The notes under the pieces were generated by a model. That model had not been told where the DNA came from. It did no database searches and saw only the letters and a program-made list of their open reading frames with translations. Position numbers and translations under genes: made by a program. Below, one piece after another: positions 2,600 through 22,387 of a DNA stretch of 22,387 nt. Source of the DNA: a virus (lineage: Duplodnaviria; Heunggongvirae; Uroviricota; Caudoviricetes); IMG/VR virus record IMGVR_UViG_2698536657_000021, positions 1 through 22,387 of that record; one strand, written 5' to 3'. Within the stretch, counting starts at the first letter, position 1; each line of letters starts with the position of its first letter.

Positions 2600-2845
2600 A
2601 TTAAAAACAATTCTTTAAAATACCTGACATGCAATACAGAAAAAAAACACAAAACCATACCTTAAATGAAAACCTCATCATAAAGCAGGTATGCATGGAT
2701 AAACTACAAGACGGGATATAAAAAACCTGTATTTAAATAAACAATAAACAACATCAGAAAAATAATTCTGCTCTATGGTTTACATTCAAAATTATCATTT
2801 ATACTTTTCAGAACATCACCAGCACAGCATAAATAAGGGGGCTAA

Positions 2846-3181
2846 ATGAAGTGGATTGTGATTGATACAGTTACCCAGCCATCATGCGGAATATCTTTTT
2901 CAGCCATATGGAGTAAAATAAAATTAATAATCTGGTATCAATCGGATGTTTTCTTACCTCCTGAAAGTATATTTACGTTGACTCACACAGGTATCGTACT
3001 TAATAACAAAGTGCTACCTGTAACCATTTACAACGTTGTACCATTCAATAAAAGATTCTGGGATTTAATCAAAAACAGCCAGGAATGTCCTGCAAATTCA
3101 GATAACGTATTGAAAGAATGCTTTAATAATCATTGCATTCTGCAAATATGCCCTTACGGACTAAAACAACAGTGTCCATAA
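2846..3181 (+). CDS. hypothetical Cys-rich protein, 111 aa, in an AT-rich island
   Basis: ATG at 2846 with strong SD AAGGGGG 5 nt upstream; stop TAA 3179-3181. Low GC and divergent from nanS-p across a very AT-rich 245-bp intergenic region. Six Cys residues. No family recognised. Confidence 0.5.
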
Positions 3182-3204
3182 TTAGTTTACTCATATCTTA
3201 CAAA

Positions 3205-3236
3205 ATTCATATAAAAGCCCCTCCGGAGAGGGGCTA
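3205..3236 (-). terminator. GC-rich hairpin terminator, possibly bidirectional
   Basis: 8-bp perfect stem AGCCCCTC (3216-3223) / GAGGGGCT (3228-3235), loop CGGA. The minus strand has TTTTAT after the stem; the plus strand has only AAAG, so termination of the 2846..3181 gene would lack a U-run. Confidence 0.45.
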
Positions 3237-3482
3237 AAGCCGCGTATCTGTATCATCATGCGCATGATGCCGGGTGCCTCCCGGTGAGTTCAGCCCGGTG
3301 CCACCAAACCAGCGCGTTTACTTTCCTGGGTATCAAAGATAACACCTAATGCACCAGTCGCCCCTCCGCTCAGGGGGATTCACCATGCCTGTTTCTTTTA
3401 ACAAACTCCCCGCAAAACAGACAACTGTCAACCGTCTGAATTGTGAGACATTTAAAATTTTCGGGGCATGACTGATACCCGG

Positions 3483-3647
3483 CTAACTACCTGGCATGTC
3501 CTTTTTCACCAAAGGAAAAAGCACCACCACAATACCGACCACCAGCACTCCATCCGCCAGCACCGACATGATCCTGCTGGTGAAATCCACCATCACCACC
3601 AGAAACAGCAGGAGTGCCACAGCGGCCAGACGCAGTTTTACCGTCAC
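3483..3647 (-). CDS. small membrane peptide, 54 aa, two hydrophobic segments, translationally coupled to the upstream TerB-like gene
   Basis: Not in the ORF track (GTG start). GTG at 3647-3645 overlaps the TerB-like stop TGA (3646-3644) as GTGA; SD GGAGA 7 nt upstream; translation VTVKLRLAAVALLLFLVVMVDFTSRIMSVLADGVLVVGIVVVLFPLVKKDMPGS; stop TAG at 3485-3483. Confidence 0.4.
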   Translation of the reverse strand: MTVKLRLAAVALLLFLVVMVDFTSRIMSVLADGVLVVGIVVVLFPLVKKDMPGS

Positions 3648-4075
3648 AGGTGGTTCTCCAGTCGCAGGCCAAGAACACCAGCAATCTCTTCCAGAACCTT
3701 ACGCTCTTCCGGCTCAATTTCACCATCTGCTTCAGCAATAGCCACCGCCACATCCAGCACATCTTCCGCTTCACGCGTATCGTGTTTCACATCTTCAATT
3801 TCACGCAACGCCGCTCGACGACCAATTTTAAAGTTGGTGTCAAGCTGACCTGTGATCGTGGCACTGATGGCATTAATTTCTGACGTAAACGCGGACAACG
3901 CAGGCTGGTTACGTAATACCTGTTCGATCTTCGCTTTCTCTGAAGCCTCACATTCACCATCTGCATAGGCTACCAGGTAGGCAGCATTAATAACCGCCTG
4001 TGCCAGATCGCGTTTCTCAAACTTTTTAATTTCCGTTGCTGCTCTGCGGGTTTTCTTTTTGAAAATACCAAACAT
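3644..4075 (-). CDS. TerB-like (tellurite-resistance TerB domain) protein, 143 aa
   Basis: ATG at 4075-4073 with SD AAGGAA 8 nt upstream (the track's 4147 start is GTG with a poor N-terminal extension). Two-repeat architecture with YADGECEASEKAKIEQVL and AEADGEIEPEERKVLEEIAGVLGL, resembling the TerB ADG-x-E/D repeat fold. Confidence 0.65.
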   Translation of the reverse strand: MFGIFKKKTRRAATEIKKFEKRDLAQAVINAAYLVAYADGECEASEKAKIEQVLRNQPALSAFTSEINAISATITGQLDTNFKIGRRAALREIEDVKHDTREAEDVLDVAVAIAEADGEIEPEERKVLEEIAGVLGLRLENHL

Positions 4076-4204
4076 CGTGACGTTCCTTTGGGTGGGTGAG
4101 CCAACGCCCGGGAGCGATCTGCCCACAGAGAAAGTCACACTGACCACTCCGTAAGCTCACCCCCGAAAGGCTCTGTGGTTGATATGCGCCGGGCGTGGCG
4201 CGGA

Positions 4205-4230
4205 TACAAAAAAGGCCGCCAATAGCGACC
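4205..4230 (-). terminator. intrinsic terminator after the 69-aa ORF
   Basis: On the minus strand: GGUCGC-UAUUG-GCGGCC hairpin (6 bp including one G-U) followed by UUUUUUGUAU. Shares the core GATACAAAAAAGGCC with the terminator at 4802..4827. Confidence 0.5.
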
Positions 4231-4264
4231 TCAGTTACGGGATTATTCTGGGGTTAAACGACTG

Positions 4265-4474
4265 TTACTCCCCCCAGACAAAATCATCACTTCCTGTTCG
4301 ATGCGAGCCATAGTGAACCTCGTACTTATCTCCCGTCTTTCTTGCTTCCGTTTCTGCGTCTTCCTCTGTCGCAAAAACCCCAACAAGATGCCAGGGCGAG
4401 CTTCTTACCACAGCCCAACCTTTAACCCATCCTTTGTTGTCCTTATCTTCCATTAACACTTCAGAAACAAACAT
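4265..4474 (-). CDS. hypothetical small protein, 69 aa
   Basis: ATG at 4474 with SD GGAGA and a 5-nt spacer; track ORF; Trp-rich (MFVSEVLMEDKDNKGWVKGWAVV...). No family recognised. Confidence 0.5.
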   Translation of the reverse strand: MFVSEVLMEDKDNKGWVKGWAVVRSSPWHLVGVFATEEDAETEARKTGDKYEVHYGSHRTGSDDFVWGE

Positions 4475-4526
4475 ATTTATCTCCTTGTGGGTACCCAGAG
4501 ATATTTTATGATTGCTCCCGGTCAGA

Positions 4527-4751
4527 TCAATAAAGTGGCTTCAATTTTGCCTTAATGATCAAATCAGGGTGATTGACGGAATCGTACACCACCTCAATAT
4601 TTTCATCCGTGGCGTCGATAAGATATTCTTTTACATAAGGACCTGTTGATTTTCCATGAAATACATCTTCAACAAGTACACTCTCCCCCTGAACAACACG
4701 AAAACTAACTTCTGTTTCGAACGGACCAATCGTCACCATCAGTTTTTTCAC
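4527..4751 (-). CDS. hypothetical small protein, 74 aa
   Basis: GTG at 4751-4749 preceded by AGGAGG with a 4-nt spacer; track ORF (VKKLMVTIGPFETEVSF...). No family recognised. Confidence 0.5.
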   Translation of the reverse strand: MKKLMVTIGPFETEVSFRVVQGESVLVEDVFHGKSTGPYVKEYLIDATDENIEVVYDSVNHPDLIIKAKLKPLY

Positions 4752-4801
4752 ATAGCCTCCTGATAAGCACTCGATTTATTAGTTAATGGTGTAACGCTGA
4801 T

Positions 4802-4827
4802 ACAAAAAAGGCCCGCAAAAGCGAGCC
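4802..4827 (-). terminator. intrinsic terminator after the tRNA cluster
   Basis: On the minus strand: GGCUCGC-UUUU-GCGGGCC hairpin (7 bp, one mismatch) followed by UUUUUUGUA. Confidence 0.5.
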
Positions 4828-4840
4828 AGAAAAATAAGTA

Positions 4841-4917
4841 TGGCGCGTTGTACTGGATTCGAACCAGTGACCGATTGCTTAGAAGGCAATTGCTCTGTCC
4901 GGCTGAGCTAACAACGC
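4841..4917 (-). tRNA. argO: tRNA-Arg (anticodon UCU)
   Basis: Manual cloverleaf fold of the reverse complement: perfect 7-bp acceptor stem GCGTTGT/ACAACGC, D-stem GCTC/GAGC, anticodon loop CTTCTAA, T-arm ACTGG-TTCGAAT-CCAGT, discriminator G, 3' CCA. Confidence 0.85.
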
Positions 4918-4930
4918 TGAATACCGATAA

Positions 4931-5007
4931 TGGACCGCCATCGAGGACTCGAACCCCGCGCAGCCAGCTTCGAAGGCTGACGCTCTGTCCCGATGAGCTA
5001 ATGGCGG
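4931..5007 (-). tRNA. argN: tRNA-Arg (anticodon UCG)
   Basis: Manual fold: acceptor CCGCCAT/ATGGCGG, D-stem GCTC/GAGC, anticodon loop CTTCGAA, T-loop TTCGAGT, 3' CCA. Confidence 0.8.
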
Positions 5008-5016
5008 TATGTGATA

Positions 5017-5092
5017 TGGTGGCCCTTGCTGGATTTGAACCAGCGACCTGGCGATTATGAGTCGCTCGCTCTCACCACTGAGCTAAAGGGCC
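5017..5092 (-). tRNA. ileZ: tRNA with CAU anticodon, ileX/ileZ-like (lysidine tRNA-Ile2 type), 76 nt
   Basis: Reverse complement GGCCCTTTAGCTCAGTGGTGAGAGCGAGCGACTCATAATCGCCAGGTCGCTGGTTCAAATCCAGCAAGGGCCACCA closely resembles E. coli ileX; anticodon loop CTCATAA. The Ile versus Met call is by that similarity only. Confidence 0.8.
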
Positions 5093-5132
5093 GGGTGCAG
5101 GATAATAACGGTACGTAACTAATCCTGCAATA

Positions 5133-6191
5133 TCATCCGTTCTGACTGGCTAAATCCTGAACTTCCCTGACCGTCTGCTCAAAACGTTCAGTCTCCAGCT
5201 CAACGCCAGTTGCACGACGCCCCAGCGCCATCGCTGCTTTGACTGTCGAACCCGACCCCATGAAAAAATCTGCAACCAGGTCCCCCGGACGACTGCTCGC
5301 GCTGATTATCTGCTGCAGCATTTCTGCCGGTTTTTCGCACGGATGTTTCCCGGGATAGTACTGCACCGGTTTATGCGTCCACACATCGGTGTACGGCACC
5401 TGCGCCGTCACGCCAAAATACCGCCGCAGATGCTTATATTCACTCTGCAGTTCCGCATACTGCCGGTTCAGTGAAGTATACGTCTCCAGCAGCTGGTGGT
5501 GGGGCTTTTCCAGTACACCGCGCTGATGCTTCTCTTCTGCCACCCGGGCAAACAGCGACTGTAATTTCAGATAATCGCTTTCGTTCGGTAGCTGCCACTG
5601 ACTGGCACTGAACCAGTGCGACACCATGTTTTTCTTTCCTGTGGCATCCACTATCTGTTTTGCCGTTATCCCCAGGGCAGCACGCGCATCACGAAAGTAA
5701 GCAATCAGCGGAGCCATCACATGCTGTTTCAGTGCCCTGCCCTTCGCCTCATACCCGGCATCTTTCGGACGATACGGCCCCTGATAATGTTCCGCGAACA
5801 GAATGCGCTCTGTGGCGGGGAAATACGCCCGCAGGCTTTCCTTGTTGCACCCGTTCCAGCGTCCGGACGGCTTTGCCCAGATGATATGGTTCAGCACACT
5901 GAAGCGTTCACGCATCATGATTTCAATGTCAGACGCCAGGCGATGACCACAGAACAGGTAAAGACTTCCGGCAGGTTTCAGCACCCGCCAGAACTGCGCA
6001 AGACACTGGTCCAGCCATTTCAGGTAATCCTCATCCCCCGTCCACTGGTTATCCCAGCCCTCGGGCTTCACTTTAAAGTATGGCGGGTCTGTGACTATCA
6101 GATCGACAGAGTTTTCCGGTAAGGTCTGGATAAATTCCAGGCAATCAGCGTTGATTAGCTCACAACTGGATATTTTTACAGTATTAGCCAT
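5133..6191 (-). CDS. DNA methyltransferase, N6-adenine/N4-cytosine family (DPPY then FxGxG motif order), no cognate nuclease nearby
   Basis: 352-aa track ORF, ATG at 6191. Catalytic motif IV DPPY (LIVTDPPYF) near the N-terminus and AdoMet motif I DFFMGSGST near the C-terminus. Confidence 0.85.
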   Translation of the reverse strand: MANTVKISSCELINADCLEFIQTLPENSVDLIVTDPPYFKVKPEGWDNQWTGDEDYLKWLDQCLAQFWRVLKPAGSLYLFCGHRLASDIEIMMRERFSVLNHIIWAKPSGRWNGCNKESLRAYFPATERILFAEHYQGPYRPKDAGYEAKGRALKQHVMAPLIAYFRDARAALGITAKQIVDATGKKNMVSHWFSASQWQLPNESDYLKLQSLFARVAEEKHQRGVLEKPHHQLLETYTSLNRQYAELQSEYKHLRRYFGVTAQVPYTDVWTHKPVQYYPGKHPCEKPAEMLQQIISASSRPGDLVADFFMGSGSTVKAAMALGRRATGVELETERFEQTVREVQDLASQNG

Positions 6192-6330
6192 AGATCAATA
6201 AGCACTTCTCTGATAGGCTCATTCTGCTTTTGCGCAAAGCAGTGGGCCTGAGGTTTGCTTGTGATCCGGACGCATGAGCAGATGGCTGGTGAGTGCCCCT
6301 AACACCCACCAGCCGCCCATTTACCACAAA

Positions 6331-6355
6331 TAAAAAAGCCTTCAGGACTGAAGGC
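6331..6355 (-). terminator. intrinsic terminator overlapping the stop codon of the small HTH gene
   Basis: Perfect 7-bp stem GCCTTCA (6338-6344) / TGAAGGC (6349-6355), loop GGAC; on the minus strand it is followed by UUUUUUAUUUG. Confidence 0.45.
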
Positions 6356-6539
6356 GTCTGTAACAACCGAACTGATAGTCTGCCAGACCCGCCATAACAA
6401 GCTGGGTCAGTATTAACTGACAGCGTTCGCGTGAAAGGTACGTATTCTGCGCAATCTCCCCGACTGTCGCCGGTTCGGTGACGCTTAATTCATTAAACAC
6501 CACTCTGGCGGTTTCGGTCATATCCTGCTGTTTCAGCAT
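6342..6539 (-). CDS. hypothetical small winged-helix/HTH-like protein, 65 aa
   Basis: First ATG in the track ORF 6342..6620 (whose listed start is GTG and would run into the tR' hairpin). Translation MLKQQDMTETARVVFNELSVTEPATVGEIAQNTYLSRERCQLILTQLVMAGLADY...; HTH-like segment GEIAQNTYLSRERCQLILTQL. Confidence 0.4.
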   Translation of the reverse strand: MLKQQDMTETARVVFNELSVTEPATVGEIAQNTYLSRERCQLILTQLVMAGLADYQFGCYRRLQS

Positions 6540-6660
6540 GTCTTTTTCCCTTTTCCGGTTAACGTGACACACCAATAACTCTTGTCGAAAAAGCCAGCAA
6601 GCTGAAAGACCGGTATTCACCGCCGCCAGCGCGTTTACTGTACTGGAGTGATTTCAGTCA

Positions 6661-6685
6661 TAAAAAAACCCGCCTGGCGACGGGT
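6661..6685 (-). terminator. tR'-like terminator of a short pR' leader transcript (lambda 6S RNA analog)
   Basis: On the minus strand: ACCCG...CGGGU hairpin followed by seven U residues, about 60 nt downstream of the putative late promoter just after Q. Confidence 0.5.
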
Positions 6686-6732
6686 GTAAAAAGTCTTCTA
6701 ACGTCAGGCATAAAACGCCCATCGTTAGGGCA

Positions 6733-6760
6733 AATTTACCACAGATTCCGGAAAAATCAA
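6733..6760 (-). promoter_or_regulatory. putative late promoter pR' (qut region) immediately downstream of Q
   Basis: On the minus strand: -35 TTGATT (6760-6755), 16-nt spacer, -10 TAAATT (6738-6733); located between the Q stop (6766) and the tR' hairpin. Confidence 0.35.
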
Positions 6761-6765
6761 CCTTG

Positions 6766-7587
6766 TTACCTGGTTACCTTTTTTAACTGCCTCTCAGCCC
6801 ATGCTTCCTCAATATCAAACTTGCTCACCAGCGCATCATAGAATTTCTTAACTGTTTTTTCCCATGACGCGCGTGTTATCTGGTTTGTCACCTCGCATAT
6901 AGCATTAAATGCCTCTGTTGACGGCAATCTTTCATAGCCACGACCACCACAACGCTGGCAGTCCCTGATAACAGGCATACCCCGTTTTTCAGACTCTTCA
7001 CGATGAATGGCAACACCGCGCCCACGACAATCTTTACAGGCGGTGGAAACCTCCCCCTTTCCGCCACACTCCGGACAGGCAACTTTTACCACCTCCCTGA
7101 CTTTTTTCCATTCCTCCCAGTAAGACGGATACACGCCTTTTGTGCACTTTGCCCACACTGGCGGCTTACCATCCGGATACTGGATCTTGTTTGTAAAAAC
7201 CTCGCTTTCAATAAATTTTTTTCCATGACAACAGGAGCACTGTTTTTTGCTCGCCGCGCTACGGGCATAATCTTCAAACGCATACGAAGCCATAATACGC
7301 ATCACTGCCGGTTTTATTTCTGCCGGGAGTTTTCTTAACGCCGCCACGCAATCACACCGACTGAGTGCATATTCTGTCAGCAATTCTGTTGCCCGTTCTC
7401 TGTCATTCATACTAATGCCCATTTTCCCAAGGAACGCAGAAAACCCCATCTCAGCCCGATTCTGTGTCATGCCCTGCGCGGCCATCACATCAGTGATACT
7501 CAGCGCATCTTTCGACGTTGAGGCCGATGCATCAGTCAGGCCGGGGGATTTTGGGGAGTAGTATTTCGGTAAATCTTCCAGTTTCAT
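6766..7587 (-). CDS. Q: late-gene antiterminator Q (QuuQ/YdfT-like, 273 aa, with CxxCxGxG zinc-finger repeats)
   Basis: Track ORF; ATG at 7587 overlaps the rusA stop as ATGA. Cys motifs CPECGGKG, CKDCRGRG, CQRCGGRG. Synteny DUF968 - rusA - Q - pR'/tR' is typical of lambdoid phages. Confidence 0.8.
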   Translation of the reverse strand: MKLEDLPKYYSPKSPGLTDASASTSKDALSITDVMAAQGMTQNRAEMGFSAFLGKMGISMNDRERATELLTEYALSRCDCVAALRKLPAEIKPAVMRIMASYAFEDYARSAASKKQCSCCHGKKFIESEVFTNKIQYPDGKPPVWAKCTKGVYPSYWEEWKKVREVVKVACPECGGKGEVSTACKDCRGRGVAIHREESEKRGMPVIRDCQRCGGRGYERLPSTEAFNAICEVTNQITRASWEKTVKKFYDALVSKFDIEEAWAERQLKKVTR

Positions 7588-12570: not shown

Positions 12571-13287
12571 TCACCGCTTCTGCTCTCTGGTGGCGGTAAT
12601 ATCCCGGAGAATATCCCGGCACTTGTTAAGCTCCCGCAGAGCGGCACAGACTCGCTCCCACTTCTGCACATCACTTTTCGCCCGGCGCAGCTCGCGGTTA
12701 GCCACATGCAGCGATGGTAAAATCAGACCATCCGGATGTTTTCTGGTGAACGACGGCTGTGACTGCACTGTGACCGCCACACTTTCCGTTTTTATTTCTT
12801 CCTGTGTTTCTGCTTCCCGAACTGGTAACGCAACACCTGCTGGCTGAGGAAAGGCTTTACCATCGGTTTCCGCTACGGATGCAGCTTCCGGCTCTGCCGG
12901 TAAATCAGCGCCCGGTATGCAGTAACGAAATTTACCGCCCTGATTCACGCGAATCAGACGCCCTTTGCTGATTGCCATGGCCAGCGATGAATTCGCCCGG
13001 CGGGAGGTAATCCCGAACATCAGTGCCAGCTCATCCGCCGTTTGTGGGCCATGTTGTTCAATCGCCTCAGTCAGCATTTGCGCTGTCACTTTCGGTACCG
13101 GTGACACCGGTTCACTTTCACCAGCCTGAATCAGCCACCACATCGAACCCTTGTTATCCGCTTCACCGCGGCGCTTCAGTTTCCACAGTTCGTTGACCGC
13201 ATCTTCACGGCTGATTCCAAGGCGGGCCGCCACTACCTGTGAAGAGGCTCTTTTCAGTGCTTTCAGGGCGTCAAATACGGTTTCCAT
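12571..13287 (-). CDS. phage protein with two winged-helix-like segments (DUF1627-like, tentative)
   Basis: Track ORF, 238 aa, ATG at 13287. N-terminal [24 protein letters not shown] and a second wH-like [24 protein letters not shown]; basic C-terminus. Confidence 0.55.
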
Positions 13288-15046: not shown

Positions 15047-15472
15047 TTAGTGCATCACCACAGCATTCCCTGCCGGGCCGCCGCGATTCATCTGGTCATA
15101 CAAAACAACCGCTGACGCAACAAAATCATCGACATCCTTCACCAGCCGATCCCTCCGTTCGACGATCTCACGGTAATATTCAGAACTGTGGCTGCGCATA
15201 CGGGCCACCAGCAAAGGCGGCATCGCCTTTTCGATCGCTGGTAACAACGCCTGAATTTTTTCAACTGCATCAGGGGTGTCTTTCTCTACCCAGCGGAAAA
15301 TTTTCTGGGTATTACGGGCCAGGGCTTCCGGATGGCTGTCGTCGTACAGTTCCGGGAACGTCATCCCCAGTTCGAAATAAGCCCGGGCTATTTCAGCTGC
15401 AGGTACTTTCTCACCGTCCGGATACGCCCAGGCATTCATCGCCATGCGGATGTGTTCATGCTTGATTTTCAT
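15047..15472 (-). CDS. YdaT-like protein (proposed CII-analog regulator / toxin family of Rac-type prophages)
   Basis: Track ORF, 141 aa. ATG overlaps the cro stop as ATGA. N-terminus MKIKHEHI matches the start of E. coli YdaT as I recall it. Sits between cro-like and O-like genes. Confidence 0.65.
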   Translation of the reverse strand: MKIKHEHIRMAMNAWAYPDGEKVPAAEIARAYFELGMTFPELYDDSHPEALARNTQKIFRWVEKDTPDAVEKIQALLPAIEKAMPPLLVARMRSHSSEYYREIVERRDRLVKDVDDFVASAVVLYDQMNRGGPAGNAVVMH

Positions 15473-15684
15473 GAATCATTCCTCATTTCGTGCGAGGTGT
15501 TATTCTTCTTTTTGTACAGCTCTGGGTTGTATTTCAATTCACCACCAGTAATTTCATCCAACTCAATTGCTCGAAGTTTTGGAATAACAGATTTCCACCG
15601 AACAACAGCCACGTGTGAAATTCCCAGAGCCTCAGCTACTAGCCGCTTTTTTTTGAAATAGCGTAGGACATCATCTTTAAACAT
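15469..15684 (-). CDS. Cro/YdaS-like HTH regulator, 71 aa
   Basis: ATG at 15684 with strong SD AGGGGGGA (the track start 15720 is TTG). HTH RLVAEALGISHVAVVRWKS. Divergent from the repressor gene. Confidence 0.7.
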   Translation of the reverse strand: MFKDDVLRYFKKKRLVAEALGISHVAVVRWKSVIPKLRAIELDEITGGELKYNPELYKKKNNTSHEMRNDS

Positions 15685-15711
15685 AAATCCCCCCTGTAAA
15701 ACCGAACCTAA

Positions 15712-15775
15712 AGGTAACAATAGTTACATGATAATGTCAACCATAGTGACATCCATTGGTAGTAACATTGGTTAC
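15712..15775. promoter_or_regulatory. immunity-region operator/promoter cluster between cro-like and the repressor gene
   Basis: Three palindromes: GTAAC-AATA-GTTAC (15714..15727), TGTCA-N7-TGACA (15735..15751), GTAAC-ATTG-GTTAC (15762..15775). Minus-strand promoter: -35 TTGACA (15740-15735) and -10 TACCTT/TTACCT (about 15717-15712), overlapped by the first operator. Confidence 0.5.
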
Positions 15776-16450
15776 ATGAACACTACCATTAGCGAACGCA
15801 TCCGAAAGCGTCGAAGAGACATAGGCCTAACCCAACAGCAGGTTGCAAAGGCTATCGGCGTCACCCGTGTATCCGTAACAAAGTGGGAAAATGGTTCAAC
15901 AAAACCGGACGGTGAGAATTTACATCTGCTGTCAAAACTGTTTTCCAAATCACCTGAATGGATTCTTTATGGGAAAGATATTCACGATAAAGTCGATGAT
16001 TTGCGATTGAATCAACTCCCCTACCTTAGTGACAACATCACCCGGTTGCCCGTTTTAACGTGGGAACAGGCTGGTTACTGGGATATGAGCTACCCAGTAA
16101 CCGAAATCCCTGGTATTAAGAATTGGGTTGATGTCATGACAAAAACATCTGAAAACTCTTTTTTATTGCGCGTTGAGGGGGATTCAATGACAAACTCTAA
16201 CGGTTTACCAACGATCCCCGACGGCTCCACGGTGTTGATCACTCCATGCTCTGGCAACATTGGGGAGATGGCGGGAAAGATTGTTCTAATCCAACTAGAA
16301 GGAATACCAACTGTAACACTGAAAAAAGTCGCAGTTGATGGCCCAAACATCTACCTACTGTCATTAAATCCGCTTTACAAGCCTATAGAACTCAATGGCC
16401 GCTACACCATTAAAGGTAAAGTCTCACAAATCCATCAATACTTAGATTGA
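15728..16450 (+). CDS. CI-type repressor (XRE-family HTH plus LexA-like S24 autopeptidase domain)
   Basis: Track ORF, 240 aa. HTH IGLTQQQVAKAIGVTRVSVTKWENG; S24 catalytic Ser in VEGDSMTN and Lys in VTLKKV. The ATG at 15776 (MNTTISERIRK...) is a plausible true start because operator copies fill 15714..15775. Confidence 0.8.
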   Translation: MIMSTIVTSIGSNIGYMNTTISERIRKRRRDIGLTQQQVAKAIGVTRVSVTKWENGSTKPDGENLHLLSKLFSKSPEWILYGKDIHDKVDDLRLNQLPYLSDNITRLPVLTWEQAGYWDMSYPVTEIPGIKNWVDVMTKTSENSFLLRVEGDSMTNSNGLPTIPDGSTVLITPCSGNIGEMAGKIVLIQLEGIPTVTLKKVAVDGPNIYLLSLNPLYKPIELNGRYTIKGKVSQIHQYLD

Positions 16451-16509: not shown

Positions 16510-16538
16510 TTGACTCAACGGGTAACTTCTGTTACCTT
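16510..16538 (+). promoter_or_regulatory. putative early promoter of the ydfA-dicF-dicB operon with embedded repressor operator
   Basis: -35 TTGACT (16510-16515), 17-nt spacer, -10 TACCTT (16533-16538). The spacer/-10 contains GTAAC-TTCT-GTTAC (16522..16535), the same palindrome as in the cI-cro intergenic region. Confidence 0.45.
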
Positions 16539-16715
16539 CATTGCGTACCCACCCCGTCCCACAGAACGCCAGGCAATACCTAGAGTTACCCGGCAGTGGT
16601 CAGGGGTTAAGTAGCCAGCCCGAGGCGTATGAACATGACGGCGGGAACACTTTGTATAACAGCGCAGCAGGTTTTTAGTTCCGCTACCCCGGCGTTAAGG
16701 GGAAATGAGGTCAAC

Positions 16716-16868
16716 ATGGATACGCTCAATCTTGGCAACAACGAATCTCTGGTATGCGGCGTGTTTCCCAACCAGGACGGCACGTTTACCGCGATGACGT
16801 ATACCAGAAGCAAAACGTTTAAAACTGAAGCTGGCGCGCGTCGCTGGTTAGCAAGAAACTCTGACTAA
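16716..16868 (+). CDS. ydfA: YdfA-like small protein (DUF1391), 50 aa
   Basis: ATG at 16716 with SD GAGG and a 5-nt spacer. MDTLNLGNNESLVCGVFPNQDGTFTAMTYTRSKTFKTEAGARRWLARNSD resembles the Qin ydfA product. The upstream part of the track ORF lacks a usable SD. Confidence 0.65.
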   Translation: MDTLNLGNNESLVCGVFPNQDGTFTAMTYTRSKTFKTEAGARRWLARNSD

Positions 16869-16981: not shown

Positions 16982-17473
16982 CTACAGATTGCCGTTCAGT
17001 TTTCTGGCCAACTCCTCAATAGATGGAGGCGATACATAATCCGGATTTTTATTCATAAGAAACTGATTTTCACAGTAGAGGCACCTGCTTTTATGAAAAA
17101 ACTCATATTCTCTAACCGGGAATGGTTGAAGTATCGATACTATCTTTTGTCCAAAACATTTTGGACAAAGATGCATGATTATGCTGCCGCCGTTCACGGT
17201 TACCTCCTTCGAGTACACAAAAGTTCCCGACTCAAGTTGGTTAAGGATATAACCTTCCGTCTGAGCCTCAAAGTTTTCAAATTCTGCAATTTTAGCTTTG
17301 AGAGAAGCATTTATTTCTTGATAAGTGCTCACCAGCTCAACGAGAGACACGCATTCGTGCTGAATAGATGCAAGCTTTGAGTTCAGTTCACCAATAGCCG
17401 CATTTACTTCAGCTTGAGTTTTTGCCTCGTTCATTAGTTTTGCAATCTGAGCGGTTTCACGAATAGCCGTCAT
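16982..17473 (-). CDS. hypothetical protein with N-terminal coiled coil and C-terminal CxxC...CxxC zinc-ribbon, AT-rich, reverse-oriented
   Basis: First ATG (17473) in track ORF 16982..17539 (track start is TTG). Low GC. MTAIRETAQIAKLMNEAKTQAEVNAAIGELNSKL... then CPKCFGQ and CLYCEN. Antisense to the expected ydfA-dicF-dicB transcript. No family recognised. Confidence 0.45.
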   Translation of the reverse strand: MTAIRETAQIAKLMNEAKTQAEVNAAIGELNSKLASIQHECVSLVELVSTYQEINASLKAKIAEFENFEAQTEGYILNQLESGTFVYSKEVTVNGGSIIMHLCPKCFGQKIVSILQPFPVREYEFFHKSRCLYCENQFLMNKNPDYVSPPSIEELARKLNGNL

Positions 17474-17486
17474 TGCTGCCGTTAAT

Positions 17487-17729
17487 TCAGCGATCACATT
17501 CAATACTCTTATTGTTGTTGGGGATATCCAGATTAACAAGATCCTTGTTGTTGGGGAATAACAGGTCCACCTCGCCTGACGTGGTTAAAAGCAGGCACAC
17601 AACACGAAAGCGCTCGGCGAAGTTAGTCTCTCTGTATATGTCGTCGTTAAATGTAATTCGATCGTGCGCTTCCGGTTGTGGCAATCCGCGAAATGGCGCG
17701 GCGGTAAGTATGGCTGGGGCTTCCTCCAT
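17487..17729 (-). CDS. hypothetical protein, 80 aa, possibly the first gene of a two-gene reverse cassette or the 5' part of a frameshifted gene
   Basis: Track ORF, ATG at 17729 with SD GGAG 5-8 nt upstream. Ends 13 nt before the ATG of the downstream ORF. The C-terminus is encoded over a 13-bp direct repeat TTGTTGTTGGGGA (17512-17524 and 17545-17557). Confidence 0.3.
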   Translation of the reverse strand: MEEAPAILTAAPFRGLPQPEAHDRITFNDDIYRETNFAERFRVVCLLLTTSGEVDLLFPNNKDLVNLDIPNNNKSIECDR

Positions 17730-17808
17730 TGCTCCAGAAAATGCACCGGGTTGTCAGGTTGACCATACACCTGAGTGACAACACCGCCACAACAACCTCT
17801 GTTATCAC

Positions 17809-17848
17809 TTTTCTGGTGATTCGGCGGAAATGGATATCCGCCATTTTT
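17809..17848 (+). ncRNA. dicF: DicF-like small RNA (cell-division inhibitor sRNA family), short variant
   Basis: Begins TTTCTGGTGA, as I recall the 5' seed of E. coli DicF; then hairpin GGCGGA-aatggata-TCCGCC (17823-17842) and ATTTTT. About 180 nt upstream of dicB, as in Qin. Exact ends uncertain. Confidence 0.55.
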
Positions 17849-18025
17849 AAAGTGTATTTTGTGATGCGGTGAATGCGGCTAAGCGCACGCGGAACAGTTA
17901 AAACAAGCGGTCTTTTACTGGCGTAACAGACATCAACTAACAATCCGGCGTTAATTGTTAACTGGTTAACGTCACCTGGAGGCACCAGGCACCACATCAC
18001 AAAATTCATTGTTGAGGACGCGATA

Positions 18026-18214
18026 ATGGAAACGTCACTACCAAACGTTAATACGTCTGAAAGGTGTTTTAATATTGGTATTCTGCTCAGTAACCGGGAG
18101 TTTACTGAGGACGCCATCAGGATGAGAAAATATGAGCCTTATCTTCTCAATGATAATTCCATACTCTCCAGAATTGCCCTTCTTGAACTTGGCATTTTCG
18201 GAGGGCAGCAGTGA
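18026..18214 (+). CDS. dicB: cell-division inhibitor DicB
   Basis: Track ORF, 62 aa. METSLPNVNTSERCFNIGILLSNREFTEDAIRMRK closely resembles E. coli DicB as I recall it. SD GAGGA upstream. Confidence 0.85.
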   Translation: METSLPNVNTSERCFNIGILLSNREFTEDAIRMRKYEPYLLNDNSILSRIALLELGIFGGQQ

Positions 18215-18399
18215 GTTCAGCGTTTGCACTGATGATGACGGTTTTTCTTATAACAGGTGAGCCACAGAATGTGATTACCGGAATTTATGCCAGTAAAGAA
18301 TCCTGCCTCCAGGCAAGAGACGAGCAAAAAATTTCTGGTGAATGCCTCCCGTTAAACAAAGTATCGCTGTACCTGAATAACGAAACACCGGCTGGATAA
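18211..18399 (+). CDS. ydfD: YdfD-like small lysis/membrane protein
   Basis: Track ORF, 62 aa. GTG start overlaps the dicB stop as GTGA. Hydrophobic N-terminus MSSAFALMMTVFLITGEP. Same position as ydfD after dicB in Qin. Confidence 0.65.
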   Translation: MSSAFALMMTVFLITGEPQNVITGIYASKESCLQARDEQKISGECLPLNKVSLYLNNETPAG

Positions 18400-18494: not shown

Positions 18495-20966
18495 ATGAGT
18501 AAAATATTTATTTGCGCCGCCATTCCTGACGAACAGGCAATAAAAAACGAGGGCGCTGTTGCTGTGGCCACTGCCATTGAAGCCGGTGATGAACGTCGCG
18601 CCCGCGCAAAATTTCACTGGCAATTCCTTGAACATTATCCGGCTGCTCAGGACTGCGCTTATAAATTTCTTGTCTGTGAGGATAAACCCGGTACACACCG
18701 CCCAGCCCTCGACTCCTGGGATGCTGAATATATGCTGGAAAACCGCTGGGATGAGGAGTCTGCTTCCTTTGTCCCGGTTGAGACTGAATCAGATCCGATG
18801 AACGTCACTTTTGACAAGCTGTCCCCTGAAGTACAGAACGCTGTCATGGTTAAGTTCGACACATGTGAAAACATCACCGTTGATATGGTGATTAGCGCAC
18901 AGGAATTGTTGCAGGAAGACATGGCAACCTTCGACGGACATATCGTTGAAGCGTTGATGAAAATGCCAGAAGTTAACGCCATGTATCCGGAGATTAAACT
19001 GCATGCCATCGGGTGGGTTAAGCATAAATGTAAGCCTGGTGCCAAATGGCCAGAAATTCAGGCAGAGATGCGCATCTGGAAAAAACGTCGCGAAGGTGAA
19101 CGCAAGGAAACCGGAAAATATACGTCTGTTGTTGATCTCGCACGCACCAGAGTTAACCAGCACCTCACCGAAAACTCAGCAGCAAAAATCAACCCTGTCA
19201 CTACAGCCATTCGTCGCGAATACAGGCAGACATGGAAAACACTGGATAAAGAACTGGCCTGCGCCCTCTGGCCCGGGGATGTGGATGCAGGAAACATTGA
19301 CGGTACCATCCATCGCTGGGCTAAAAATGAGGTTATCGACAAGGATCGCGAAGACTGGAAGCGTATCTCAGCATCAATGCGCAAACAGCCTGATGCGCTT
19401 CGCTATGACCGTCAGACTATTTTCGGCCTTGTTCGTGAGCGCCCGATCGACATTTACAAAGATCCCGTTGCACTGAACAAATACATCAGCGAATACCTAA
19501 CGACAAAGGGCGTGTTTGAACATGAAGAAACAGACCAGAGCTCTGCTGATGCTATCCTGTCGTCAGCAGCACAAACTGATCCAGTGGAGACGGCGGAATC
19601 CAATTCTCAAAAAAATGAAATCCTGGTGGAAGCTGAACCATCTGTAGAGCGTGAAGGACCGTTTTATTTCGTCTTTACCGATAAGGACGGGGAAAAATAC
19701 GGCAGGGCAAACAAACTTTCTGGCCTGGACAAGGCGCTGGCTGCCGGTGGTACCGAAATCTCAAAAGAAGAATATTTTGCCCGAAAAAATGGCACATATA
19801 CGGGCTTACAGCAAAATACAGATACCGCAGAAGATTCAGAACAACCAGAGCCGGTAAAAGTTACCGCTGACGAAGTAAACAAAATTATGCAGGCAGCCAA
19901 TATCAGCCAGCCTGACACCGATAAATTGCTTGCTGCATCACGTGGTGAATTTGTTGAAGGGATTAGCGACCCGAATGATCCGAAATGGGTTAAGGGGATT
20001 GAAACCCGCGATTCTGTGAACCAGAACCAGCCCGAATCGGAACAAAACGACCAGAAAGCGGAACAAAACAGTCCAAATGCGTTACAAAACGAGCCAGAAA
20101 CGAAACTGCCTGAACCAGAAGTGCAACAAGAACCGGAAAAAGTCTGCACCGCCTGCGGTCAGACCGGCGACGGCAACTGTCCTGACTGTGGCGCGGTAAT
20201 GGGCGACGCAACATACCAGGAAACATTCGATGAAAAAAATCAGGCTGAAGTTCAGGAAGATGATTCGGAGGAAATGGAAGGCGCTGAACATCCGAACAAT
20301 GAGAATGCTGGTAACGATCAGCATCACACCAGCGATAGTGAAACTGGCGAGGCAGCAGAGCCCTTAATTGCGGAGAACGGTCATCACATTATCACATCCA
20401 CCAGCAGAGTGTGGATTCACCTGTCGGTCGACCTTGAAACGATGGGAACAAATCCTGATGCGCCAATCAACTCTATTGGCGGTAAATTTTTTGATCCGGC
20501 AACCGGAGAGATGGGGCCTGAATTCAGTAAAGCTATCGATCTGGAAACCTCCGGCGGAATCATCGACCGTAAAACAATAAAGTGGTGGGCGAAACGATCA
20601 CGCGAAGCACAATCCGCTATTTTTACCGATGAAATCTCGTTAGATGTTGCTCTCCGGCTATTCATAGAATTTATCGAAAAAAACTCCGGCGGGCGTTTTG
20701 TCCAGGTATGGGGAAATGGAGCCAACTTCGACAACGTAATTTTACGCCGTTCATATGAACGGCAGGGGATCCCCTGCCCGTGGCTTTACTACAACGATCG
20801 CGATGTACGCACAATCGTTGAACTGGGTAATGCCATTGGCTTTGATGTCAGAATGGCTATTCCATTCGAAGGCGTACCCCACAATGCGCTGGACGATGCC
20901 CGTCACCAGGCAAAACAAGTTTCAGCAATCTGGCAAAAACTGATCCCGAGTCAGGCTGATTTTTAA
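18495..20966 (+). CDS. YdfE-like large prophage protein with a C-terminal DnaQ-like (DEDDh) 3'-5' exonuclease motif set and a central zinc ribbon
   Basis: Track ORF, 823 aa, SD TGAGG upstream. C-terminal Exo I VDLETMG, Exo II WGNGANFD, Exo III HNALDDARHQ; central CTACGQTGDGNCPDCG; long acidic Q/E/N-rich linker. Follows dicB-ydfD as ydfE does in Qin. Confidence 0.75.
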   Translation: MSKIFICAAIPDEQAIKNEGAVAVATAIEAGDERRARAKFHWQFLEHYPAAQDCAYKFLVCEDKPGTHRPALDSWDAEYMLENRWDEESASFVPVETESDPMNVTFDKLSPEVQNAVMVKFDTCENITVDMVISAQELLQEDMATFDGHIVEALMKMPEVNAMYPEIKLHAIGWVKHKCKPGAKWPEIQAEMRIWKKRREGERKETGKYTSVVDLARTRVNQHLTENSAAKINPVTTAIRREYRQTWKTLDKELACALWPGDVDAGNIDGTIHRWAKNEVIDKDREDWKRISASMRKQPDALRYDRQTIFGLVRERPIDIYKDPVALNKYISEYLTTKGVFEHEETDQSSADAILSSAAQTDPVETAESNSQKNEILVEAEPSVEREGPFYFVFTDKDGEKYGRANKLSGLDKALAAGGTEISKEEYFARKNGTYTGLQQNTDTAEDSEQPEPVKVTADEVNKIMQAANISQPDTDKLLAASRGEFVEGISDPNDPKWVKGIETRDSVNQNQPESEQNDQKAEQNSPNALQNEPETKLPEPEVQQEPEKVCTACGQTGDGNCPDCGAVMGDATYQETFDEKNQAEVQEDDSEEMEGAEHPNNENAGNDQHHTSDSETGEAAEPLIAENGHHIITSTSRVWIHLSVDLETMGTNPDAPINSIGGKFFDPATGEMGPEFSKAIDLETSGGIIDRKTIKWWAKRSREAQSAIFTDEISLDVALRLFIEFIEKNSGGRFVQVWGNGANFDNVILRRSYERQGIPCPWLYYNDRDVRTIVELGNAIGFDVRMAIPFEGVPHNALDDARHQAKQVSAIWQKLIPSQADF

Positions 20967-21030
20967 TGTTCAACCCCGGTCGTCGTCCGCAAGCTATAGT
21001 GGCGGCGGCCATGATTAGCGAACAACGCTC

Positions 21031-21279
21031 ATGGCAAGACTTATTCTGCTCACTGAGTGGGCAAAAGAGGAATTCAGTGAACCGGTCCCTACTCCGGGCA
21101 CGTTAAGTAAATACGCTAAAGCCGGAATGATATTTCCTCTCCCCAAAAAAGTTGGAAGACACTGGCGAGTGGATCCTCGAGCTCGCTTTGTCGGAATGGT
21201 AAACAAGCCGGAAGTGATCGCCACAGATCACCCTGCTTTGAAGAGGATACTGGAAGATGGCGCGCCCACGAAAATATAA
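21031..21279 (+). CDS. xis: excisionase (Xis-like)
   Basis: Track ORF, 82 aa. LTEWAKEEF...GMIFPLPKKVGRHW parallels lambda Xis (LTLQEW...RIFPPPVKDGREY). Overlaps the int start by 23 nt, as in lambda. Confidence 0.75.
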   Translation: MARLILLTEWAKEEFSEPVPTPGTLSKYAKAGMIFPLPKKVGRHWRVDPRARFVGMVNKPEVIATDHPALKRILEDGAPTKI

Positions 21280-22387
21280 AACTGAAGTTCCGGGATTATC
21301 TCCGTATTTTGACAAAAGAAATAACAAAGTTTACTGGCGTTACAGGCATCCCATAACAGGAAAAAATCACGGGCTCGGCAGTATTGACCAGAAACAGGCA
21401 GAAGCTATTGCAGCAGAAGCGAACAGCCGTCTTGCCAGGCAACAAATGGAACAAATGCTCACTCTGCAGGAGAAAATTATTCGTGATACCGGTGGTTCAT
21501 CAACCGTTTCTGTTTTTCTGAATAGTTACCGAAAAATTCAACAGGAAAGATATGAAAACGGAGAGATCAAACTCAACACACTGAAACAGAAAGCATCCCC
21601 TCTCAGGGTATTTGATGAACGTTTTGGTACCAGACCATTAGATGCCATAACCGTAAAAGATGTGGTATCGGTGCTGGAAGATTACAAGGCAAAAGGACAT
21701 AACAGAATGGGACAAATTTTCAGGAAAGTACTGATTGATGTTTTCCGGGAGGCCCAGCAAACGGGCGATGTCTCGCCAGGCTTTAACCCTGCAGAATCGG
21801 CAAAAAAACCACAGGTACGGATATCACGGCAACGACTGACCTTTGATGAGTGGATGATGATTTATAATGCAGCGGAAAAGGATGGTTACTTTTTACAACG
21901 TGGTATGCTGCTGGCGCTGATGACAGGCCAGCGCCTTTCAGATATTTGCAAAATGAAATTTTCGGATATCAGGGATGGTTATCTTCATGTCGAACAGCAA
22001 AAAACAGGAACCCGGATTGCCATCCCTCTGGCTCTGCGTTGCGATAAATTAAATCTCACCCTGGATGATGTAGTGTCATCCTGTCGCGATTGCGTTCTTA
22101 GTCCGTGGTTATTGCACCACCATCATGCTAAAGGGACAGCTAAGCGCGGCGGGATGGTTAAGCCAGCAACGTTGACAGTTGCATTTAAAAAAGCCCGGGA
22201 TTCTGTGGATTACAACTGGCGCGCTAATGGCACTCCCCCCTCTTTCCATGAGCAGAGATCTTTATCAGAGCGATTGTTCAGGGAACAGGGAATTGATACC
22301 CAAATTTTGCTGGGTCATTCGAATCAAAAAATGACCGATATTTACAACGATGTACGCGGTAAAGAGTGGAAAAAACTGGTCATTTGA
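21257..22387 (+). CDS. int: tyrosine integrase (lambda Int family)
   Basis: Track ORF, 376 aa. N-terminus aligns with lambda Int (FDKRNNKVYWRYRHPITGKNHGLG versus YIRNNGYYCYRDPRTGKEFGLG). Catalytic-domain H-x-x-R (HEQRSL) and C-terminal Tyr region LLGHSNQKMTDIYNDV. Stop TGA is the last codon of the window. Confidence 0.9.
   Translation: MARPRKYKTEVPGLSPYFDKRNNKVYWRYRHPITGKNHGLGSIDQKQAEAIAAEANSRLARQQMEQMLTLQEKIIRDTGGSSTVSVFLNSYRKIQQERYENGEIKLNTLKQKASPLRVFDERFGTRPLDAITVKDVVSVLEDYKAKGHNRMGQIFRKVLIDVFREAQQTGDVSPGFNPAESAKKPQVRISRQRLTFDEWMMIYNAAEKDGYFLQRGMLLALMTGQRLSDICKMKFSDIRDGYLHVEQQKTGTRIAIPLALRCDKLNLTLDDVVSSCRDCVLSPWLLHHHHAKGTAKRGGMVKPATLTVAFKKARDSVDYNWRANGTPPSFHEQRSLSERLFREQGIDTQILLGHSNQKMTDIYNDVRGKEWKKLVI

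Follow-up and report, generated by a model that had tools for sequence, protein, structure and literature searches.

A short allele occupies the dicF slot of the lambdoid prophage represented by IMG/VR record IMGVR_UViG_2698536657_000021. The RNA of this slot is DicF by position, but, judged from its sequence, it is not DicF by family model or by function-bearing sequence. DicF is the textbook prophage small RNA (sRNA) that blocks cell division, and its copies in pathogen genomes are counted through sequence similarity or with the Rfam model. The whole stretch of 22,387 nucleotides (nt) that was analyzed is called the window here. All coordinates refer to it, and all the evidence is computational. 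The window contains the PL-type early-left operon of a lambdoid prophage. The short allele is rather probably an internal terminator and processing element, the RNA product of which is not equivalent to DicF, and the inhibition of cell division would then rest on DicB.

Sequence and Structure of the Short dicF-Slot Allele

The order of the operon is CI (S24 type), promoter and operator, leader, ydfA-like gene, antisense open reading frame (ORF), dicF slot, spacer, dicB, ydfD-like gene, exonuclease, xis, and int. The features are listed in Table 1.

Table 1. Features of the window around the dicF slot.
Feature	Position	Strand	Characteristics
Cro-type repressor gene, first of the rightward operon	15469..15720	-	Pfam P22_Cro 57.9 bits; true start probably ATG near 15684
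OR-like operator region	15714..15775	.	Two perfect GTAAC-N4-GTTAC palindromes, 15714-15727 and 15762-15775
CI-type repressor, N-terminal helix-turn-helix (HTH) and C-terminal S24 autopeptidase	15776..16450	+	HTH_3 57.3 bits, Peptidase_S24 66.9 bits; ORF open from 15728, likely start ATG 15776
Putative PL-like promoter	16510..16538	+	-35 TTGACT 16510-16515, weak -10 TACCTT 16533-16538; third palindrome 16522-16535 overlapping
Conserved leader, from the PL-like promoter to the ydfA-like gene	16545..16700	+	About 115-150 nt; absent from K-12 Qin
ydfA-like gene (DUF1391), first of the leftward operon	16716..16868	+	Pfam 101.5 bits; 43/50 residues identical to K-12 YdfA
Antisense-oriented gene, phrog_1244	16982..17539	-	185 aa, two CxxC motifs; PHROGs 194.8 bits, no Pfam match
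Pre-dicF segment, conserved	17640..17809	+	Corresponds to the 5′ portion of the 190-nt K-12 DicF precursor (RNase III); near-identity to K-12 in the alignment
Short dicF-slot allele	17810..17848	+	13-nt 5′ tail UUUCUGGUGAUUC, 6-bp GC-rich hairpin, 8-nt loop, A+U5; intrinsic-terminator-like
dicF-dicB spacer, structured	17852..18009	+	20-bp long-range closing helix 17852-17871/17990-18009
dicB, divergent clade	18026..18214	+	62 aa; Pfam DicB PF05358 112.9 bits (cut-off 27), residues 1-62 of 62
ydfD-family gene, DUF1482 (PF07358)	18211..18399	+	62 aa; Pfam 55.4 bits (cut-off 25)
Remainder of the leftward operon	18495..22387	+	823-aa exonuclease 18495-20966, excisionase 21031-21279, integrase 21257-22387

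In the alignment of the window (17560–18230) with the dicF–dicB region of the K-12 Qin prophage, 84% of the columns are identical, and the flanks of the slot are nearly identical. Both this alignment and the flank-anchored pattern described below place the slot between the ydfA(BC) leader genes and dicB, with conserved flanks. As in Qin, the slot is followed by the same structured spacer and then by dicB.

The short allele begins with the seed 10-mer TTTCTGGTGA at 17810–17819. The hairpin at 17823–17842 consists of the arms GGCGGA (17823–17828) and TCCGCC (17837–17842) and a loop of 8 nt, and the U-run, A+TTTTT at 17843–17848, is directly 3′ of it. This hairpin was called by the terminator scan, and it is contained in the minimum free energy (MFE) fold of 17790–17860. 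The 39-nt RNA has a predicted folding energy of −11.1 kcal/mol, with the 13-nt 5′ tail unpaired. Three variants of the stem are seen among short alleles. Two of them are wobble-compatible (GGUGG, and CCGCU, which is a C-to-U change in the 3′ arm), and one has an A–C mismatch (GGCAG).

The aligned slots read TTTCTGGTGA--TTCGGCGGAAATGGATAT-----------------CCGCCATTTTT in the window and TTTCTGGTGACGTTTGGCGGTATCAGTTTTACTCCGTGACTGCTCTGCCGCCCTTTTT in K-12 (hyphens are gaps). The short-allele RNA is thus 19 nt shorter than the 53-nt DicF of K-12. Only the first 10 nt (UUUCUGGUGA, preceded by CUCUGUUAUCA in both) and the closing GGCGG/CCGCC stem with its U-run are common to the two, while the 26-nt interior of DicF corresponds to the 8-nt loop. 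This loop, AAAUGGAUA, does not occur within the interior of DicF, which indicates a replacement and not a simple deletion. The initial annotation had described a DicF-like 5′ end, a GGCGGA/TCCGCC hairpin, and a U-run at this place, with a body shorter than that of K-12 DicF. The sequence and the alignment agree with this description.

The conserved pre-dicF segment ends at a predicted RNase E site, UUAUCAC/UUUCUGG (cut at the slash), the surroundings of which differ from those of K-12 at a single position (−1, A to C). The conservation of this precursor region suggests the same route of biogenesis as for DicF. In the unprocessed transcript, a predicted 6-bp hairpin (17804–17809/17815–17820) partly sequesters the seed; it looks weaker in K-12, where it was judged by eye. 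The predicted mature 5′ end is preceded, at a distance of 14 nt, by the sequence CACAACAAC. Canonical loci read GCAACGCC here, and several of the non-canonical alleles keep CACAACAAC.

The seed 10-mer TTTCTGGTGA occurs three times in the window, against 0.06 expected. The extra copies are at 18332–18341 (+), inside the coding sequence of the ydfD-like gene in sense orientation, and at 12740–12749 (+), antisense to a DUF1627 gene. Across 1.66 Mb of related loci, the 10-mer is seen in these three contexts (dicF slot, ydfD-like coding sequence in sense, and DUF1627 antisense) and in no others. Because of the antisense orientation, the DUF1627 mRNA is perfectly complementary to the seed, and, if the RNA acts in trans, the complementary site would be one candidate target.

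Family Model and Target Pairing

The gathering threshold of the Rfam DicF model (RF00039) is 48 bits. With this model, no match was obtained at the gathering score in the whole window, and none at E ≤ 10 in 17600–18100 (501 nt). The same model gives 76.7 bits for DicF of K-12 and 58.9 bits for allele C, another allele of the slot. The initial annotation had taken the element for a variant of DicF, and the covariance-model search, which it had itself proposed as a check, speaks against this membership.

The 3′ region of DicF pairs with the ribosome-binding site of ftsZ and its 5′ end pairs with xylR, as supported by compensatory mutations (PMC5069750). According to the alignment, the DicF segment UAUCAGUUUUACUCCGUGACUGCUCU, which is antisense to the ftsZ ribosome-binding site, is absent from the short allele. 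The seed of the short allele also departs from that of DicF after nucleotide 10, GAUUC versus GACGUUU.

Duplexes with ftsZ, xylR, pykA, manX, and pchC were predicted segment by segment and compared with those of shuffled RNAs; accessibility is ignored in these predictions. The segment-wise tests were used in place of full-length unsegmented duplexes, the energies of which are inflated and uninformative. Canonical DicF forms a duplex of 13 contiguous bp with xylR at −20.3 kcal/mol (0.04 of shuffles at least as good), and duplexes at −22.3 kcal/mol with the pykA ribosome-binding site and at −25.4 kcal/mol with manX (0.013 of shuffles at least as good in either case). These three duplexes fall at or near the known pairing regions, and the full-length duplex with ftsZ spans positions −28 to −3 of the mRNA.

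For the short allele, no predicted duplex with ftsZ, xylR, pykA, or manX beats the shuffles (0.16–0.99 at least as good). Its best duplex with the translation-initiation region of ftsZ is weaker than most of them (0.83–0.89 at least as good). The canonical 13-bp pairing of UGGUGACGUUUGG with xylR (+8 to +20, the A of AUG being 0) is lost, and only UGGUGA of this stretch is kept. The best xylR duplex predicted for the short allele falls at another site and is without significance (0.157 of shuffles do as well or better). The pchC leader is uninformative as a target, with neither canonical DicF nor the short allele above the shuffles.

As far as predicted pairing indicates, the short allele has lost the parts of DicF for silencing ftsZ and the other known targets. 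The sRNA half of the "division-inhibition module" proposed in the initial annotation is therefore unlikely, because the body that pairs with the ftsZ ribosome-binding site is replaced and no pairing stands above that of shuffled RNAs.

Distribution and Allele Series of the dicF Slot

With a 51-nt allele-specific query, the short allele was found in 424 of 5426 complete E. coli genomes (7.8%), including most O157:H7 records among the matches listed. The corresponding numbers of genomes are 3969 for canonical DicF, 158 for allele D, and 108 for allele E. By these counts the short allele is the second most common allele of the slot. It is also present in 45 IMG/VR contigs. It has no megablast match in the GenBank phage collection and no match in the GTDB species representatives.

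A flank-anchored pattern scan of IMG/VR recovered the window and 120 loci. The slot contains at least seven types of alleles, with flank-to-flank lengths of 122 to 146 nt (window 17770–17850; loci L004, L011, L023, L044, L068, and L081). All of them keep the U-run and the GGCGG/CCGCC closing stem, which appears in allele C as a compensatory GGUGG/CCACC pair. The 5′ segments and the hairpin interiors are joined differently in different alleles; allele F combines the canonical seed with the hairpin of allele E. Among the seven alleles tested, the Rfam DicF model recognizes two, the canonical one and allele C.

The genomes of O157:H7 contain 4–7 copies of the dicF–dicB spacer, but 2–3 canonical DicF matches and one short allele. 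This difference indicates that a single genome holds several alleles at once. In 42 of 44 loci, the short allele goes together with the divergent DicB clade. The density of polymorphism over the 45 short-allele loci is unusable as a measure of purifying selection, since most of the RNA was held constant by the search pattern itself and the flanks were displaced by indels. The short allele is recurrent and mobile, being present in genomes, in IMG/VR contigs, and with several immunity types. This recurrence and mobility argue that at least the hairpin is functional and not debris.

An alignment of dicF1–4 from enterohemorrhagic E. coli (EHEC) is said to be given in Melson & Kendall 2019, and the published count for EHEC is reportedly "four dicF copies". 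This count may mix different alleles, and the short allele of the Sakai prophage Sp14 may be included in it without comment. Only dicF sequences more than 99% identical were considered by Balasubramanian et al. No description of the short allele or of the allele series was found in the literature searched, which left out Melson & Kendall 2019 and Faubladier & Bouché 1994. The short allele is common but apparently undescribed.

Repressor, Operators, and Putative Promoter

The CI protein encoded upstream of the leader can be aligned over its full length with lambda cI (3bdn). The corresponding motifs of the two proteins are WEQAG and VQAG (the Ala–Gly site), EGDSM and EGNSM (Ser), and TLKK and TFKK (Lys). 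The N-terminal domain resembles that of P22 C2. We take the VQAG, GNSM, and FKK motifs of lambda to be Ala111–Gly112, Ser149, and Lys192 of cI. The LexA-like S24 domain reported for this repressor in the initial annotation is confirmed by Pfam (HTH_3 and Peptidase_S24), and the alignment shows cleavage determinants like those of lambda cI.

Three perfect GTAAC-N4-GTTAC sites are present in the window, while 0.33 are expected at up to one mismatch, and none of 100 shuffles reaches this count. Two of the sites are between cro and cI, and the third (16522–16535) lies over the PL-like promoter, about 70 bp past the cI stop. This arrangement of operators and putative promoter is what a lambdoid OL/PL region looks like. 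The homology with the leader of Sp14 of O157 starts directly downstream of the PL-like promoter, which suggests the boundary of an immunity cassette. It is plausible that CI controls the operon of ydfA, the short dicF allele, and dicB, and hence that this operon is induced by SOS; from the repressor and operator sequences, this can be reasonably assumed.

Regulators differ among the dicF loci. A full-length HTH+S24 repressor related to that of the window or of Sp14 was found in 27 of the 97 loci with enough upstream sequence, and 21 of these 27 repressors are upstream of canonical DicF. The 41 short-allele loci include 11 with S24-type repressors and 10 with DicA-like ones; the rest have other types or none that was recognized. 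In another strain, a 99.9% identical 1-kb module is found behind an HTH-only regulator of about 139 aa, which is DicA-like in size and position. Phage Tritos and phages with the prefix PPompW_ have dicB modules with short non-S24 repressors (annotated as CI or dicA), and dicF is annotated in Tritos. Phage mEp460 also matches the dicB module. As reported previously, dicBF has a promoter of the PL-like kind, and dicA/dicC resemble an immunity region (PMC6832061; bioRxiv 10.1101/2023.04.14.536235).

These facts indicate that an S24 repressor upstream is ordinary lambdoid biology, as is the regulatory part of the finding. The initial annotation had contrasted the S24 repressor with the control of Qin by DicA, but such repressors precede about a quarter of the dicF loci sampled, canonical ones included, so the implied novelty is not borne out. 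Its proposal of an SOS-inducible division module survives in part: CI keeps its cleavage determinants and an operator is present at the PL-like promoter, whereas the DicF-type sRNA is unlikely and the novelty of the regulation has to be given up.

The region resembles the PL operons of lambda and P22 in its CI with HTH and S24 domains, Ala–Gly site, and Ser/Lys dyad, in the divergent Cro, in the palindromic operators at both promoters, and in a leftward operon that runs via a small division-inhibitor gene to the exonuclease, xis, and int. It differs from them in that no N-like antiterminator or nut/put element was found in the window, in that the inhibitor is DicB instead of Kil of lambda, and in the antisense gene that interrupts the operon.

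dicB, the ydfD-Like Gene, and the Structured Spacer

The gene directly after the dicF slot is dicB, and its product matches the DicB profile over the full length. The protein is identical to K-12 DicB at 35 of 62 residues (56%), and to DicB of Sp14 at 51 of 62. The GTG start of the ydfD-like gene overlaps the TGA of dicB (GTGA at 18211–18214). Its family, DUF1482, is that of the K-12 ydfD product, and the limits 18211–18399 are also annotated in near-identical strains. The identity is 28 of 62 (45%) to YdfD of K-12 and 57 of 62 to the Sp14 protein. The Pfam scores (Table 1) and the overlap bear out the initial annotation of dicB and a ydfD-like gene coupled through GTGA.

The spacer between the dicF slot and dicB is more stable than expected. 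Its MFE is −58.9 kcal/mol, versus −43.8 ± 3.9 kcal/mol for shuffled sequences (z −3.86), and none of 200 shuffles is as stable. In the consensus fold of 10 variants, 46 pairs are retained, but without compensatory changes, the sequences being too similar. The closing helix starts a few nt past the U-run, at the place where a cut yielding the 72-nt species of K-12 would lie. From the predicted fold, it is probably a typical RNase III substrate, which gives the longer 3′ end of DicF in K-12.

The spacer scores 33 bits with the STnc100 model (RF02076), under the gathering score of 47. It shares with STnc100/PasD the outer helix (GGUGAAU...CACC) and the CCUGG-AGGCA-CCAGG hairpin of the model. Unlike STnc100/PasD, it is sub-threshold and forms part of the operon transcript, and neither a promoter nor a terminator belonging to it is visible. 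A full-scoring copy of STnc100 is present at 3205–3417 (−) in the late region of the same prophage. By eye, this copy is closely preceded by a TTGACA hexamer and ends in a GC hairpin and a U-run that look like a terminator. The spacer and this copy may be paralogous structured elements.

Proposed Function and Alternatives

In K-12, DicF is excised from the dicBp transcript; RNase III generates the 190-nt precursor, RNase E generates the mature 5′ end, and the 3′ end is made by intrinsic termination or by RNase III (bioRxiv 10.1101/2023.04.14.536235). The conserved precursor region, the RNase E context, the terminator, and the spacer helix suggest that the short allele would be made in the same way, through RNase E and RNase III processing and termination. 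Transcription would start from the PL-like promoter once CI is inactivated. CI has every determinant of RecA-stimulated self-cleavage. The element may then act mainly in cis, as an intrinsic terminator or attenuator and a processing site, and in this way control the read-through into dicB, ydfD, exo, xis, and int. The released RNA would be about 34–39 nt long. It is unlikely to repress ftsZ, manX, pykA, or xylR, and any block of cell division would come from DicB. In this scheme, transcription from the proposed promoter, processing, the efficiency of termination, SOS induction, and the activity of DicB are predictions from the sequence.

Several points weigh against this function in cis. No antiterminator protein or RNA that would account for read-through to xis and int was identified in the window. 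The PL-like promoter has a weak −10 element and was not among the calls of the consensus promoter scan. The conserved 10-nt seed, together with its perfect complement in the DUF1627 mRNA of the prophage, leaves room for a role in trans. The duplex predictions cover the four known targets and pchC without accessibility, and a new set of targets is possible. No sRNA of the Hfq cross-linking and analysis of cDNA (CRAC) data of Tree et al. 2014 maps to the dicF slot of Sp14, in a screen of uninduced lysogens.

The short RNA could instead be a true trans-acting sRNA that has its own host or phage targets through UUUCUGGUGAUUC. The dicF slot of lambdoid prophages would then be a polymorphic and modular sRNA cassette that exchanges seeds and loops, and the short allele would be a distinct regulator and not a degraded DicF. 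The occurrence of seven or more allele types within the same flanks, which join 5′ modules and hairpin modules in varying ways, is consistent with such a cassette. So are the rank of the short allele (424 genomes versus 158 for D and 108 for E), the presence of several alleles in a single O157:H7 genome, and the restriction of the seed 10-mer to three contexts, one of them antisense to the DUF1627 gene. On the other hand, a 13-nt tail with a 20-nt hairpin is unusually small for an Hfq-dependent sRNA, and variation of loop and seed is also expected from neutral drift in a terminator. We hold this possibility as a tentative one, worth keeping in view but rather unlikely both for the RNA and for the slot as a whole.

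Much less probable is the reading of the initial annotation, in which the element is a functional variant of DicF that inhibits division together with DicB by repressing ftsZ. It shares the position, the first 10 nt, and the terminator stem with DicF, and dicB follows; but there is no match to the covariance model even at E ≤ 10, the 3′ region that pairs with ftsZ (PMC5069750) is absent, and the best ftsZ duplex is weaker than those of most shuffled RNAs. Least probable of all, and very improbable in itself, is an anti-sRNA like AgvB, in which a longer transcript with CACAACAAC (17788–17796) would act as a sponge for GcvB at its R1 seed. An alignment of the Rfam AgvB model covers 17779–17848 with its CACAACA motif matched, CACAACA is the consensus of GcvB R1 targets (PMC4104026), and several non-canonical alleles have CACAACA where canonical loci read GCAACGC. 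This is the only Rfam match over the short RNA (search at E ≤ 10, 17600–18100), but its score with RF02702 is 15.2 bits against a gathering score of 56 (E = 3.1). The 9-mer is expected 0.27 times per window and is contained in 25 of 100 shuffles. Members of AgvB are 3′ of PR′ in the moron site (PMC4104026), while the element of the window is in the early-left operon, and the motif is upstream of the predicted RNase E 5′ end, with no promoter evident there in the promoter scan. A GcvB sponge like AgvB was rejected on the basis of the score, the location, and the chance expectation of CACAACAAC. The preferred interpretation of the short allele is thus still that of an internal terminator and processing element.

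Comparison with Prophage Sp14 of O157:H7 Sakai

In O157:H7 Sakai, the short allele is in Sp14, between ECs_2767 and dicB (ECs_2768). Sp14 is located at serU and carries espJ, tccP, and pchC. This CP-933U-like region (ECs_2766–ECs_2773) has the same short allele with one base different, after the stem. It also shares with the window the leader, the DUF1391 gene, the spacer, the dicB clade, the ydfD-like gene, and the exonuclease. The immunity cassette is different, the CI of Sp14 being 32% identical to that of the window. In Sp14, the interval from ydfA to the dicF slot contains no antisense ORF, and this prophage is integrated at serU, versus ompW for the prophage of the window.

The "LexA family" CI of Sp14 (ECs_2766; L130 42344–42988) reads PDDTM in place of the GDSM of self-cleaving repressors. 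Judging from this motif, it probably has no catalytic serine and is not self-cleaving. Sp14 may not be SOS-inducible through the cleavage of CI.

Leader and Other Regions of the Prophage

The core motif of the leader is seen in 66 of 131 sequences (dicF loci and the window) and in Sp14 of O157, but not in K-12. The leader is conserved across different immunity cassettes. In 16545–16700 it shows no excess of folding stability over shuffles (z +0.70), and its only match in Rfam is a chance one to a CRISPR repeat. No blastn-short match was obtained between the leader and the put regions of HK022. By eye, it resembles putR only in the short motif CCCGGC-GTGGTCA-GG, and its MFE shape is like neither that of putL nor that of putR. 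These comparisons give no support to a put-like antiterminator in the leader, a type of RNA of about 70 nt with two stem-loops just downstream of PL. The ydfA-like ORF could begin farther upstream, with an in-frame ATG at 16629.

The phrog_1244 ORF, flanked by the ydfA-like gene and the dicF slot, takes the place of K-12 ydfB/ydfC. It is upstream in 10 of 41 short-allele loci, and is annotated as hypothetical in a near-identical strain. It may be a moron or a defense gene. Downstream, the exonuclease matches a PHROG exonuclease and a Rv2179c-like domain of Pfam. In the near-identical strain FHI_NMBU_11 (99.9% identical), ompW follows the integrase.

The minus strand upstream encodes a YdaT-family protein (Pfam), replication genes, and the late region (617–7587) with the Q antiterminator, a DNA methylase, three tRNAs, a TerB-like gene, STnc100, and a nanS-p-like esterase (DUF1737 + SASA + DUF6645). 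This late region looks like that of a Shiga toxin (Stx) phage without stx, and the window represents a lambdoid prophage without stx. The TerB-like gene is presumably placed where Stx phages carry stx.

Implications

In intact prophages, dicB would be an SOS-linked early gene and not only a curiosity of cryptic prophages. A substantial minority of the dicBF-type modules carry alleles that are missed by the Rfam model and are without the ftsZ-pairing segment. Counts of DicF copies, and the inferences drawn from them ([quoted passage not shown]), may be wrong for such loci. If the modular cassette is real, the genomes of Shiga toxin-producing E. coli with 4–7 modules would produce a set of distinct sRNAs on a shared, conserved scaffold. 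Provided that the alleles are active sRNAs, the dicF slot would illustrate how seeds are swapped in nature while the scaffold stays fixed.

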